This document shows positions 9,998 to 58,283 of a stretch of 64,000 bases of DNA, piece after piece; the first letter of the stretch is position 1; every line of letters starts with the position of its first letter. Under the pieces are notes generated by a model. The model was not told the DNA's origin and ran no database searches. It saw only the letters and a program-made list of their open reading frames with translations. The translations under genes were made by a program, and so were the position numbers. This DNA comes from Octopus vulgaris (Eukaryota). The stretch spans positions 16,616,001 to 16,680,000 of the forward strand of contig OX597825.1 of NCBI GenBank assembly GCA_951406725.2, given 5' to 3'.

Positions 9998-10968
9998 CCA
10001 TACCGACTTGCAAAATAGAATGGTACATTGGATGAAATATTCTTAGATATATTTAAAAAGAGAGGATGGTTCCGGATGGAACGCTTTTGATAAGAGGCTT
10101 GATCTCTGAGTAATGATTTACATCTGAACAGCAACAACAGCTGTACGGATAGTTATATTACTCTCTGATACCAATCAAATGACATTGACAAGCCAATGGT
10201 ATAGCCTTTATGTGACTATTCGTTTTGTTAGAAATAGCAACCAAATTTCCCCCAAGTCTCACTATGATGTCTTGAAGAGGAAGGATGCATAGAAAGACAA
10301 GTTCATCTCGGTTGACTGTCCATACCGACTTGCAAAATAGAATGGTACATTGGAAGAAATATTCTTAGATATATTTAAAAAGAGAGAGGATGGTTCCGGT
10401 TGGAACGCTTTTGATAAGAGGCCTGATCTCTGAGTAATGATTTACATCTGAACAGCAACAACAGTTGTACGGATAGTTATATTACTCTCTGATACCAATC
10501 GAATGACATTGACAAGCCAATGGTATAGCCTTTATGTGACTATTCGTTTTGTTAGAAATAGCAACCAAATTTCCCCCAAGTCTCACTATGATGTCTTGAA
10601 GAGGAAGGATGCATAGAAAGACAAGTTCATCTCGGTTGACTGTCCATACCGACTTGCAAAATAGAATGGTACATTGGAAGAAATATTCTTAGATATATTT
10701 AAAAAGAGAGAGGATGGTTCCGGTTGGAACGCTTTTGATAAGAGGCCTGATCTCTGAGTAATGATTTACATCTGAACAGCAACAACAGTTGTACGGATAG
10801 TTATATTACTCTCTGATACCAATCAAATGACATTGACAAGCCAATGGTATAGCCTTTATGTGACTATTCGTTTTGTTAGAAATAGCAACCAAATTTCCCC
10901 CAACTTTCACTATGATGTCTTGAAGAATAAGGATGTATAGAAAAGACAAGTTCATATCGGCTGACTGT
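9998..10968 (+). repeat. Tandem triplication of a 322-324 bp unit built from family D repeat fragments
   Basis: Unit starts CCATACCGACTTGCAAAATAGAATGG at 9998, 10320 and 10644; copies nearly identical. Confidence 0.97.
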
Positions 10969-23229: not shown

Positions 23230-24930
23230 TCTGTTTAGAAAAAAGGGCAAGGGTGAGTTGACAGCTCATGGTCATAAATATCGTCATACGTTTCCCTTTT
23301 CCTCAAGGAGGAAAGAGAACATTAGGAGTAGTCAATTGGATATAGACTAACTGTCTATAAAAGGAGGCTGGGTAGGGGAAGATTCTAAATCATGATGTTA
23401 ATTACCAATTAAAAGGACAAGATGCTAATAAAATCTAGGATATTAATACAGAGGAAATTTTATCTTGGGGCGCTATGGATGATTGTTTATAAACAATATT
23501 GTTATGTTGTATAAAAATATAATTTAAGATTTAAAAAAAGATATCATAACCAAAATAGGTAAAATGCGTGTATACACGAATTATAAATCTTAAAAAGAAA
23601 GATTACATTGAATAATATTCATTCATGTACATAATTAATTACTTATTACGTAGTTTTTATAAAGAATGCTCAGGGCATTTACTTATGGAATACTGGAAAG
23701 ATAAACATACTATCTACATATTAATTATAAGCCATGAATCAGAAAAAATTAGGATGTGTACAGATACACATACAAATTTATATATGTGCATACATGCACA
23801 CATACATATTACACATATATTTATACGTTTATATGGATATAGTATAACCATCTCACATAGATTTAAGTAACTGAAAAGTATCTATTTACGAACAAGAAAA
23901 ATAACAATTTATAAGGGATAAGAGGTTAATAGGTTATGTGCATATATGCACATATATACATACACTAATATTTATACGTTTATATGGATATAGTATAGCC
24001 ACCTCTCATAGATTTAAGTGGCTGAAACATATCTACTTAAGAACAGTAACAGGTTAATAGGTAAGGATATCAAAATAAGAAAAGAAAATAACAATAATTT
24101 ATAGAAAATATATAACCTACATTTAAAGAGACAGGGGATTCAAGTTTGAGGTGGGGAAGAGATAAAGGTAACTCGAAAAGAGGAGGTAGTAGGTATGCAC
24201 GTAGTGAGGGCAGTTAGAGGTATTCAGACAGAAGAGGTTTTATAAGTTGTAATGATTTTATAGTTTCTAGGGGGTATATAATTAATCAAAAGTCTTACTT
24301 ACATAATGTCATTACAAATATACATAATATGATGAGGAGGGTAGAACATCATAGAAAAGAAAAAAATAGTGTAATCACTAAAACTATGATGGAGTCCGAC
24401 TAACTAGGAAGGAGTTATCATGGGATAATAATTACATATAGCACATCACATAACATAATATATAGCTTATAATATATGCAATGAAATTTAATTCACCATA
24501 TAACATAATATCCCATGATTTTATTACATTTAATGCTAGAATGTAAGTTTATAACGGAGACGACCACAAAATTATTTTCCACCATCAAAGTTCAAGTGTG
24601 GCACCTATAATCATTAATTTCGAAAGGACTTAAATGTACGGGTGACGCTATGCACGCATGATACCCTTAGGTCTAATCTATTATTAATCAGATTGTTCTT
24701 CTCTCTATACTTGAAAATCTCATACGTTTCCACAGAACACAGCTCACACCCGTATCGACTATCTCTACAAGGCTGCGCTTTCCGTATTATATCCCATTTA
24801 AGACTACATTCGAATTCTATCCCGCTTTCCTTCAGTTCCCAAATCTTGCTAGATAAGGACGTACAATTGGTTTTAGGTATGAGTCTAAAAGATGAAAAAT
24901 GGTTATTGATACGTTTTTCATATTCATCGG

Positions 24931-24934
<4 letters not shown>
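23230..24934 (-). mobile_element. Penelope-like element 3' fragment: GIY-YIG endonuclease C-terminal part (24614-24934) plus probable long 3' UTR
   Basis: EKRINNHFSSFR...NCTSLSSKIWELK...KWDIIRKAQP...CELCSVETYEI...NNLINNRLDL..SCVH matches the PLE GIY-YIG pattern KR..NH..SF...T.LS..IW.LK...W.I...C.LC..E...N.LN...C.H. Truncated at a (TA)n. UTR extent is a guess; it contains an ~80-bp duplication (23815-23895, 23968-24046). Confidence 0.8.
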
Positions 24935-24998
<64 letters not shown>

Positions 24999-25109
24999 TT
25001 AACAGCTTCGGATATGATTGTACATTTATAAATTACGTTTTGGATTAAACTCTACAATTGCAGCCAGGAGCATTACTACTGTTAATGTTATTGATATTCC
25101 TATCATTGT

Positions 25110-36781: not shown

Positions 36782-37369
36782 TTTAAGATAGGAAAGATAT
36801 TAATCAGAATTGTATGTGGTCTTCCAGGTGCAGTATAACCTCACATACATACATACATACATATATATATATATATACGTACATAACATACATACACGCG
36901 CACATACATGCATACATACATACATACAAACATACATCAATCCATAGATACATATATACATACATAACATACATACATACATAAGATACATGCATACGTA
37001 CATACATACACGCACACATACATGCATACACACATACATTCATACACACATACATTCATACACACATACATTCATACAACCATACATACTTTTTTATATT
37101 GTTGTTGTTATTTCCGTTCAGAACAGGTTTGAAAGATTTAATAAACCGTTTATATTTTATCGTTCTTGCAACCTCACTTGTATCATGTAGTTTGTGGAAA
37201 GGAAAACTTAGAAAATTTTCTGACCACATGCTTGTATATGTTCATGCAATGGAATTTGGCGAACATTGGTGTTCCGGATTTGTTGTCTATGGACTCGTAA
37301 GCTTACTTTAGCTTACTTAAGAAGCAAATTGCGCGTAATTTTTTACAGCTGTTCAGTGATATTTTTAAC

Positions 37370-38437
37370 ATGGTGTGCAAAAACGAACATTTTCGCCGTA
37401 GTTTGCTTTTCATTTTATTTCCATGAAGACAAGAAAGCTGCTGGGGCTCTCAAAGACATATTTGAAGTTTATGGTCTTGATTGCTTAACAGAGCGCATTG
37501 TCAGAAATGGTTTAAAAAATTCAGTTCTGGAGATTTTTCACTCAAATATGAGTAACGTTCTGGTCGACCTACTGAAGTTGATGATAACCGAATCAAAACC
37601 ATAACTGAATCTGATTGTCATATAACTATGCGGGGGATTGCAGAGAAGTTAAATGTATCACACACACAACAATTGAAAAACACTTAAAATGTTTTGGACT
37701 CGTTAAGAAGCTCCCTATTTGGGTTCCATATAAATTGAAAGAGATTCTCTTAACACAACAACCTTTTATCTAAAACGAATCATCGCTGATGATGAAAAAG
37801 GGATTGTCTACAATAACATCAATCGAAAACGATAATGGTCCAAGCGTAAATGAACCAGCACACGTCACATTGAAAGCTGAATTGTATCAATAGAACGTCA
37901 TGCTGTCAGTTTGGTGGGATTACAAAGGTGTTATGTATTTTGAGCTGCTTTCAAGAAACCAAACGATGAATTCAGATGTTTACTGTAAACAACTAATGAA
38001 ACTGGAGAACGCAATCAAAGTAAAACGGCCATATTGGCAAATCGTAAATGAATCGTTTTCTACCATCACAACGCTAGACCCTACACGTCGTTGTTGACTT
38101 CTGAAAAATTATTGGAGCTTGGTTGGGAAGTGATGTCACATCCACCATACAACCCTGACCTTGTACCATCAGATTACCCTTTATTTCGAAATTTGTAAAA
38201 TTCTTTGAATGGTAAAACTTCAAATAATAATAATGACCAAAAATCGCACTTGCTCAGTTTTTGGCAGATAAGGACCAGAAGTTTTATGAGCGCGGAATCA
38301 TGACGTTAGCAGAAGATGGCAAAAGCTCATCAAACAAAATGGAACGTTTAAAATTGATTAACGTTCAATCCTTTCATGAAAAAGGAAAATGGCCTTTTTC
38401 ACACTAAAAGTCCGAAATTACTTACTTGCCAACCCAC
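37370..38437 (+). pseudogene. Decayed mariner (DD34D, mellifera-subfamily-like) transposase with right TIR
   Basis: From ATG 37370: MVCKNEHFR...KKAAGALKDIFEVYG...FSSGDFSL...RSGRPTEVDD, WVP, RIIADDEKGIVYNN, MLSVWWDYKGVMYFELL, HHNARP, HPPYNPDLVPSDY. Many stops and frameshifts. Right TIR CCGAAATTACTTACTTGCCAACCCAC|TA at 38412-38439. Left TIR not confidently found. Confidence 0.93.
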
Positions 38438-44074: not shown

Positions 44075-44747
44075 GCGGTTGTCGTAAAGAATCCACTTTT
44101 CATCGCAAGTCACAATCCGGTCGAGAAACTGGTCGTTCTTGTTGCGTAAAAGAAGGGAAGACGACACTCCAAAACGGCGTTTTTTTTTGGTCGTCGTTCA
44201 ACTCGTGCGGAACCTATTCTCAAGTATTTGTTTGTTTTTCCAATCTCTTTCAAGTGGTTGGAAATTGTCGTAACCGTTACGTCTAATTCAGAAGCAAGCT
44301 CTCGAACAGTTGTGCGTGGATTGGCTTCGACTAAGGCTCTTAGTTGATCGTTGTCAACATCCGATGGCCGGCCACTACGCTTATCATGTTCAAGACTCTC
44401 GTCACCGCTACGGAATTTCTTGAACCACCATCGTGCTGTACGTTCATTAGTAGTTCTTGGGACAAACGCGTCGTTGGTATCGCGAGCTGTTTCAGCAGCT
44501 TTTCGGCCTAGATTGAACTGGAATAAGAAAATTGTGCGAATTTGCTTTTTGTCCATGTTGTATTCAACGTTCCGGAAAAAATGGCCTAATTATTCAAAAA
44601 GAAAAAGAGTAACACGCTTAGATAGAGCAAAAAAAACGGGCTTTAAAATGATATATACATCCAAAGTAATTTAATGAAAATTAATTTGAAAATACATAAT
44701 TAAAAACCAACATTAAAAATTCCGCAAGAAATTCCTTGACAACCTGA
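44075..44747 (-). pseudogene. 5' half of a cecropia-subfamily (Hsmar1-like) mariner with left TIR
   Basis: ORF 44110-44556 reads MDKKQIRTIFLFQFNLGRKAAETARD...ERTARWWFKKFRSGDESLE..KRSGRPSDVDNDQLRALVEANP.TT.RELASEL; after frameshift VPHELNDDQK.RRF..SSSLLLRNKNDQFLDRIVTCDEKWILYDNR. TIR TA|TCAGGTTGTCAAGGAATTTCTTGCGGAATTTT at 44749-44716. Truncated just after the first catalytic D. Confidence 0.93.
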
Positions 44748-56835: not shown

Positions 56836-57446
56836 AGTACAAAGGAACCGATAAAGATTTTACATTTTAAATAAGATATATTTTATCGATCTGGTGGAGA
56901 GTTTTCTTCCAGTTAAAGTCAAGAAGCCCATTAATCAGAACAGATGTAACAGCTTATGCCTAGAATTTGATAGCCATTAACTACTAAAATATAGTTTCAC
57001 TGTAAATAAAAGTGCAACTCTTTTTGAGACAGACTTGAAAATATGGTCTTAGAACATAGAAAACCATGAGTTTTATAACGCATATTGATATTGTTAGAAT
57101 TATTTATTTCTGATTAAGGCGTATGTTCATGTGAATATATGTACGCGTGTCTGATGGTGGATGCGATCCGGTTCTCTGAAAAAACAACTTTTGCGTTTTG
57201 GATATCAATAAAATTTAAAACAGTTTGTTATACTTTAATGGAATCTATGGTGAAAGAGTTAATTCTAGGAAATGCAGAATTCTGAGACACTGTCGGATAT
57301 TAACAATGGATATTTAATGAATGAAGTATGGATTAGGATAAAACGTGAGATCGTTTTATCCTAATCCATATGGCATAAAGAATTTCGTTAAATTAAAGTC
57401 TGTGTAACTTTAACCTTTTCATATGTATAAATATTTACATTTTTTT

Positions 57447-57932
57447 AAATACTGATAGGGCACAGAAAGTGCGTCAATAGCCAGCTGGAGGAGGTGTCCT
57501 CCAGGGACTACAAGCTACAGTAGCATTCACCCTTAAGGGTTAGCCACATTTAAGTGACAAATATACTTCACGATGTGTTGCAGCTACTGTTTATATCTCG
57601 TTCAGAGATTCATTATTGCTTGTTTACACTTTTTCAATATCAGTGACTTTTCGTCACTGGAAAAAGTATATATATATTTGCAAGGGGAATCCACTTTTCT
57701 TCGGCAATCAGTGATTGTCACACGCTGATGACGGGCCAATACCCAGAAACTCGAATCCGTGTGTATCGTGTCAGATTGAAGATGGGAAGAATGGCTTCCC
57801 TTTGCAAATACTGATAGGGCACAGAAAGTCTGTTATAGCCAGCTGGGGGAGGTGTCCTCATGGGGCTACAAGCTACAGTAGCATCCACCCTTAAGGGTTA
57901 GCAACATTTAAGTGACAGATATACTTCACGAT
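57447..57932 (+). mobile_element. Hammerhead-containing non-coding retroelement (retrozyme-like or non-autonomous Penelope-type): 359-nt unit plus 127-nt terminal redundancy
   Basis: Direct repeats 57447-57574 and 57806-57932 (about 11 differences by eye); probable TSD ACATTTTTTT (57437-57446) / ACATTTATTT (57933-57942); internal hammerhead; no ORF. Confidence 0.75.
57719..57763 (+). ncRNA. Type I hammerhead ribozyme
   Basis: Stem I CACACG (57719-57724) / CGTGTG (57758-57763); core CTGATGA (57725-57731); stem II cGGG-CCAATA-CCCa; GAAA (57746-57749); short near-palindromic stem III ACTCGA(A)T; cleavage triplet ATC, predicted cut after 57757. Confidence 0.82.
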
Positions 57933-58283
57933 ACATTTATTTTGTTTTCCATATATTTAATACACCGTATATATTGATCTAATTTGCTTATCCCTACATC
58001 TACCTCTATATCCCTACATCTACCTCTCTTGAGCACGTTTAAGTGTATTCTATACGAAGAATATTTGGATCTCATCTATGAACTATTTAAAAGTTCTCAT
58101 ATATAAAAATGAGGTTAATATTTCAAAATATATAATCACATTGGCAATCAATAACTCTCCAGACATCTTAACATTTAACTAGTTTTTAGTTAAAACGCCT
58201 CCAATAAATTTTAATACGTTACGGCTAATGGAAAACATTGCATTTTGCTGGTGAAAAGCATAATTGATTATATCATATTTACT

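Follow-up and report, generated by a model that had tools for sequence, protein, structure and literature searches.

The insertion at positions 57447-57932 of the 64-kb window (the whole stretch of octopus DNA that was analysed) appears to be an old, decayed and 5'-truncated fossil of a common repeat family without open reading frames, which by its sequence-level features is a non-LTR retrozyme. We propose that the copy was probably made by a Penelope-like (Neptune-type) reverse transcriptase/endonuclease that acted in trans on a unit-length RNA, likely a circular one.

The window copy and its family

An earlier note on this DNA had described an insertion of 486 bp without an open reading frame, of which the first 128 nt recur after 359 nt. 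This structure was confirmed: positions 57447-57574 are repeated at 57806-57932 with 91.4% identity over 128 nt, and the longest ATG-initiated reading frame that overlaps 57447-57932 comprises 51 amino acids. The following features were assigned:

57447-57932, plus strand: 5'-truncated single-arm insertion of about 1.36 units, whose 3' end is the short fixed end of the family (unit position 128)
57447-57805, plus strand: one 359-nt unit in arbitrary phase, with 287 of 352 aligned letters equal to a young 353-nt unit
57806-57932, plus strand: unit positions 1-128, second copy
57575-57621, plus strand: unit positions 129-175, in other copies an optional 'tail' end of 43-47 nt, only internal here
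57711-57769, plus strand: type I hammerhead with a distal extension of stem I, predicted cut after 57757
57436-57446, plus strand: possible target-site duplication, left copy, alone within chance
57932-57942, plus strand: possible target-site duplication, right copy, with one mismatch and its first base common to the element end, alone within chance

Neither a further copy of the 57447-57574 repeat nor a tRNA gene was found within the 64-kb window. The differences between the two overlapping segments of the insertion (7.9%) are private to one or the other, and each segment, when set against 67 other copies, differs by 4-5% from the closest of them, a pattern that would fit segments identical at insertion that decayed afterwards. 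The flanking repeat, which had been read as a target-site duplication, is present and spans 11 nt with one mismatch (57436-57446 / 57932-57942). Since 43 of 448 shuffled flank pairings, about one in ten, also gave at least 10 nt with one mismatch, the duplication at this locus is by itself not beyond chance. Target-site duplications hold at the level of the family, where exact ones of at least 8 nt that are not of low complexity were found at 10 of 56 loci versus 12 of 448 control pairings (Fisher p = 3e-5).

A genome search with the unit returned 4,635 first-look candidates, and the best 40 that were scored contained at least 115 matches at 80-100%, in agreement with the multicopy family that had been predicted. 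Tandem multimers, equally predicted, were recovered as well, among them one array with 8 and another with 4 full units of 352 nt, both of which still end at position 128; across the family, unit lengths range from 352 to 359 nt and arrays reach 9 units. A subfamily of 353-nt units came to light in a search with a trimer; it is very young, and its arrays are 0-1.4% different from one another. The best 40 matches scored for a 122-nt piece of the young unit were all identical to that piece. The family, or parts of it, is also contained in the sequencing runs X1-X16, under five organism codes (in small shares, seven runs compared), which suggests that it probably reaches related species.

To describe the insertions, two sets of loci were used. 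The first comprises 56 loci of older subfamilies, two of which, L055 and L056, have the appearance of a single locus that was duplicated, and the second comprises 52 loci selected because they contain the young subfamily or arrays, in which arms were counted if at least 95% like the young unit. Contrary to the circularly permuted ends that had been expected, 3' ends are fixed at two sites and only 5' ends scatter. For the older set, unit positions 121-140 or 161-180 account for the ends of 60 out of 79 segments, with the second of the searches behind this set favouring ends at 161-180; in the first 30 older loci alone, 32 of 44 segments end at 119-132 or 164-175. An inverted arm is present at 21 of the 56 older loci. 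Among the young arms, 73 of 79 end at 121-131 or 168-180, two sites about 45 nt apart, while their 5' ends are scattered. Two-armed loci combine one short and one tailed end in 31 of 35 cases, single-armed loci carry the short end, as does the window copy, in 12 of 16, and one locus has another layout. A (TA)n tract adjoins 76 of 86 3' ends. Penelope-like elements (PLEs) are marked by 5' truncation, partial tandems, an inverted 5' arm and a tail at one end, as described in 10.1101/2021.04.23.441226, and the insertions of the family show this Penelope-like architecture. With fixed 3' ends, one-tailed arms and a (TA)n target, the marks expected of mobilisation in trans by a Penelope-type enzyme are present.

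The hammerhead motif

Read from the letters of the window copy, stem I pairs 57719-57724 with 57758-57763, the core CTGATGA occupies 57725-57731, stem II 57732-57745 and GAAA 57746-57749, and the predicted cut follows 57757; these are the same stems, core and cut site (57757/57758) that had previously been assigned to a type I hammerhead inside the unit. No Rfam hammerhead match to the window copy was obtained, and a sister copy reached 11.6 bits (E = 5.6). Two positions set the window copy apart from its relatives, 57736 in the closing pair of stem II and 57755 in stem III and the palindromic loop, and because of these departures its hammerhead is predicted to be probably inactive. As the motif is both damaged and single, release of a monomer from this copy would not be expected.

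In 29 distinct copies, 90.7% of 580 cells of stems I (with the distal extension), II and III are paired. Two-sided changes occupy 14 cells, a value that none of 500 shuffles reached for these related copies; the number of pairs with a two-sided change, five, was matched in 63 of 500 shuffles and is thus not beyond chance. Six slid controls were all lower in pairing and in covariation score. In most older copies, the window copy included, C-A replaces the first pair of stem II (unpaired in 23 of 29). A young copy matches the whole model RF00163 (Rfam Hammerhead_1) with 32.2 bits and an E value of 6.9e-7, just missing the gathering score of 34, and the core and the palindrome are kept in 136 of the 155 sense-strand motifs with intact stem I at the 52 loci. 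Loop 3 is palindromic despite a two-sided change, and a palindromic loop 3 is expected of hammerheads that work as dimers, according to the account in PMC4209133.

Folding was compared with that of shuffled sequences. The window motif performed no better than these (z +0.6) and a young motif gave z -2.8, the minimum-energy fold differing from the catalytic fold in both motifs tested. For the unit, z was -4.4, and -6.4 and -6.9 when it was folded as a circle (40 shuffles), with a branched, highly paired structure. All units of the 352-nt subfamily (L091, L092, L014, L017, L023, L027 and L029) have a C at position 4 of the hammerhead core. The same C variant was seen in a hammerhead in the 3' UTR of a coding PLE (L159), and the PLE family with 781-aa frames has a core of the U3-A8 type.

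Other repeats were recorded in the course of this search. A second hammerhead repeat family (L074:1820-2240, minus strand, and loci L231-L242) is about 60% like the first and has 3,433 first-look candidates. Its loop 3 is a palindrome of 8 nt, its units recur about every 337-365 nt, and inverted arms occur. Within the window, loose hammerhead motifs at 37786 and 38734 were rejected, being without stems, and a pattern search found no canonical hammerhead core in the three near-identical 324-bp tandem copies (97% matches) at 9998-10968. Mariner transposase remnants (Pfam HTH_48) lie at 44113-44589 on the minus strand and at 37224-37601 on the plus strand.

Template and enzyme

The variation within and between young loci bears on the template. 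For 18 substitutions, all overlapping units of a given locus carry the change and the other sampled loci (52 in the set) lack it; 8 of the 18, at seven loci, are present in both inverted arms and must therefore already have been part of the template when the insertion was made. Variants that are shared fall into nested haplotypes, fixed array by array. Locus-private fixed variants and nested haplotypes together call for a bottleneck of one unit at every insertion, such as a circle would supply, and they favour one molecule that was copied repeatedly, likely a circle. Repeated copying of one template, as formerly proposed, is thereby supported, albeit not by the argument first used for it: the terminal redundancy of about 1.35 units at one locus, which had been taken as the footprint of a circle, does not alone show a circle.

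Substitutions present in several, though not all, of the units at a locus number 15, compared with 126 in single units and 71 fixed ones, a figure inflated by differences from the single reference unit. Haplotypes are mixed in L179 and L190, and the older 9-unit array L091 contains three recurrent variants; owing to these observations and the 15 partial substitutions, template switching or later exchange at the DNA level would appear to take place too. A supposed mutation hot spot at the ligation junction (position 309, with 3 of 145 single-unit changes) was dismissed, as four other positions also have three changes and the site is a CpG. No evident A-to-G excess, as A-to-I editing within arrays would produce, was found among the listed variants.

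Transcripts were sought in assembled contigs of sequencing runs that were only guessed to be RNA. Such contigs contain family sequence, and in runs X1 and X3 several of 67-158 nt equal the young unit without difference. The joint that goes back 353 nt is produced by genomic arrays and was also seen in X15, a run of unknown kind used for comparison; these contig matches therefore do not show transcription or a circle.

Open frames as long as 781 and about 980 aa occur in some of the many elements with reverse transcriptase and GIY-YIG domains that the genome harbors. The elements examined that we take, from linker motifs and not from a tree, to be of the Neptune type, those with 781-aa frames included, end in (TA)n too but have 3' ends and hammerheads of their own that differ from those of the family. 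In the 46, 60 and 22 PLE loci compared (partly overlapping), the unit was never found as the terminal repeat of a coding PLE. A tblastn search with four PLE proteins against 124 family loci (a redundant set) matched five distinct places; three of them were examined and proved to be neighbours or a fusion, the other two being L044 and L184. At L095, L084, L159, L169 and L093, (TA)n lies between the copy and a nearby PLE fragment, and at L022 about 250 nt of other sequence does so. L259, a candidate for a PLE that ends in a retrozyme, was discarded because the 3' UTR of the PLE resumes beyond the copy, which indicates that the copy inserted, with a deletion, into a TA tract inside the PLE. At L051:1501-2315, a tailed retrozyme arm is fused in inverted orientation to a 5'-truncated GIY-YIG fragment of the Neptune type, with 5 nt of microhomology and TA tracts at both sides; a template switch or a deletion could account for the fusion, and a two-template insertion is possible.

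The window itself contains a C-terminal GIY-YIG remnant (24617-25051, minus strand) beside a TA tract; the PLE family from which it comes is abundant, with 13,284 first-look candidates. The idea that the Penelope-like remnant of the window was the partner was not borne out, as this remnant and its relatives at 30 loci have no terminal sequence in common with the unit and no link to it beyond neighbouring copies. The earlier note had further set its reading apart from that of an ordinary PLE remnant with a coding element attached and fixed ends; the lack of an attached reading frame in the family's copies stands, but their 3' ends are fixed and not permuted. Further distinct hammerheads were noted in PLE-rich loci, at L139 near 27 (plus strand), L168 near 1608 (plus strand) and L107 near 4179 (minus strand) and in L116 and L132. 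Loci L151-L155 and L170 hold young PLE-like elements with open frames of 976-1,091 aa, in which the descriptor found no hammerhead; the two that were scanned gave no Pfam match.

Several other explanations were weighed against a circular template. With the same family and a Penelope-type enzyme, a linear multimeric transcript of an array could have served as template, with or without unequal crossing-over and with no circle at all. Local amplification is discussed for vertebrates in 10.64898/2026.07.22.740005. Predicted hammerheads are frequently poor cutters; in the octopus, possible source arrays of adequate length exist, and mosaic or recurrent variants occur in L091, L179, L187, L190 and L198. 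We nevertheless regard this explanation as unlikely, since the 18 locus-private fixed substitutions, which extend into the terminal partial unit and include 8 in both arms, would demand a one-unit bottleneck at each step. Such a bottleneck would be given if the enzyme jumped from end to end on one linear, hammerhead-cut monomer and thus mimicked a circle, and R2 enzymes are capable of end-to-end template jumps. Such jumps should produce stops and untemplated bases at the cut site, yet only 2 of 79 5' ends fall within 5 nt of it (2.5 expected), and all 151 passages through it are without indels. The absence of both an excess of 5' ends and indels argues against linear cut RNA, and we consider a jumping enzyme quite improbable.

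A further explanation, by which the insertions would be truncated pseudo-LTRs from an ordinary coding PLE, is suggested by the fixed 3' ends, tails, inversions and TA targeting, all of them PLE features, and by the L051 copy that is fused directly to a GIY-YIG fragment, and the genome searches scored the best 40-150 candidates. It is largely refuted, and to our mind very improbable, given that more unit, up to 9 turns of it without a reading frame, lies upstream of each 3' end, that the flanks of the family have no junction-adjacent upstream sequence in common, that both the 3' ends and the hammerheads of the coding PLEs examined are different, and that the motif is of the canonical type with a short stem II and not of the minimal PLE type described in PMC4209133. 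A DNA-level element or satellite, spread by Helitron-like rolling circles or extrachromosomal circles and bearing an incidental hammerhead, would through DNA rolling-circle copying also give tandem units and a one-unit bottleneck, but the hammerhead shows compensatory changes, and these, like the target-site duplications and the 5'-truncated insertions whose inverted arms are tailed at one end, point to target-primed reverse transcription, and we attach next to no probability to it.

For a Penelope-type enzyme copying a circular retrozyme RNA, the following course may be envisaged. A multimer locus would be transcribed, and the hammerheads would cut each unit, probably with two motifs assisting one another by pairing through their palindromic loop 3; by analogy with other retrozymes, a host ligase would then close the monomer. 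The enzyme would nick AT-rich DNA, mostly the (TA)n at which insertions are observed, and the fixed 3' ends would correspond to priming at two RNA sites that lie 170-220 nt downstream of the cut and are separated by about 45 nt. From each primer, synthesis would proceed along the circle, through anything from 0.1 to about 7 turns, until it stopped at random, leaving the one arm or the two back-to-back arms that are seen. Copies with fewer than two hammerheads, among them that of the window, would be dead ends. A bolder proposal, to which we give somewhat less than an even chance, is that the retrozyme is still active and that a Penelope-type enzyme primes one circle at two sites 45 nt apart and rolls round it from both, with no sequence common to the RNA and the pseudo-LTR of the partner element. 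If true, double priming on a circle would explain the tail and the tandem-inverted structure of Penelope-like elements.

Comparison with known systems

The family consists of short units within the 150-400 nt usual for non-LTR retrozymes, both tandem, as dimers to multimers, and dispersed, with a type I hammerhead in each unit, no coding capacity, no derivation from tRNA and target-site duplications of more than 4 bp. It shares units of about 350 nt in tandem, without reading frames and with a GC content below 50%, with the metazoan non-LTR retrozymes described from coral, mussel and axolotl (PMC7229834, PMC7761336). Further features common to the octopus family and the retrozymes as presented in PMC7229834 are the canonical type I hammerhead with a short palindromic helix III, a highly paired fold, target-site duplications of more than 4 bp and coexistence with PLEs. 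Circular RNA and cleavage were demonstrated there, whereas for the octopus family both are predicted; putative fixed priming sites, tails and two-armed insertions are present in octopus and are not among the features described in the consulted parts of that paper.

The vertebrate non-LTR retrozymes of 10.64898/2026.07.22.740005 likewise occur as dispersed monomers and multimers for which mobilisation by PLEs is proposed. A PLE origin is argued for them, and of 57 Xenopus families, 24 match known transposable elements, mostly PLE pseudo-LTRs, whereas no sequence link to a PLE was found for the octopus family. That study, in the sections available, samples no mollusc and does not analyse insertion anatomy; it reports that one of nine predicted Xenopus dimers was cleaved in vitro, which weighs against the view that the hammerheads are active.

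In its 5' truncation, inverted arm, one-end tail and microsatellite target, the family has the marks of PLE-mobilised elements. The autonomous EN+ PLEs carry a reading frame for reverse transcriptase and GIY-YIG upstream of the terminal repeat, and the family has none. With EN+ PLEs of the Neptune type (10.1101/2021.04.23.441226, PMC4209133) it shares 5' truncation, partial tandems, the inverted 5' arm, the tail at one end, microsatellite targeting and a type I hammerhead, but it differs from the elements described there in lacking a reverse transcriptase or GIY-YIG frame, in a tail of 43-47 nt instead of 30-40, in a hammerhead that is canonical and not minimal, and in the many whole turns per arm. 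The non-autonomous PLEs of Chlamys, such as MRC1 (10.1101/2021.04.23.441226), are also non-coding and arranged head to tail in multiple copies, and their insertions are made by a PLE. According to their description these elements are without hammerheads and have a 3' end like that of their partner; the octopus family is the opposite in both respects, with no likeness to a partner found.

The words 'octopus' and 'cephalopod' are absent from the main texts of PMC7229834 and PMC7761336, the octopus repeat annotation in PMC13282606 makes no mention of ribozymes in its available text, and the listings of the literature searched contain no description of a retrozyme, hammerhead or viroid-like family from octopus, cephalopod or squid. 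The family may be catalogued in Repbase or Dfam as a non-autonomous Penelope or an unknown repeat. Neither two fixed ends nor a test by variants in both arms is reported in the portions compared of the retrozyme and PLE literature (PMC7229834, PMC7761336, PMC4209133, 10.64898/2026.07.22.740005). Copying of circles by PLEs has been proposed before (PMC7229834, PMC7761336, PMC4209133), and the spread of animal retrozymes by circle and Penelope is a published hypothesis, based on co-occurrence and sequence likeness; the tail and the inverted arm of PLEs have been described and are unexplained. The value of the present family lies less in the window copy, which is only an old fossil, than in the young subfamily, whose two fixed start sites, arms of whole turns and private variants in both arms make both questions testable with a 353-nt RNA.
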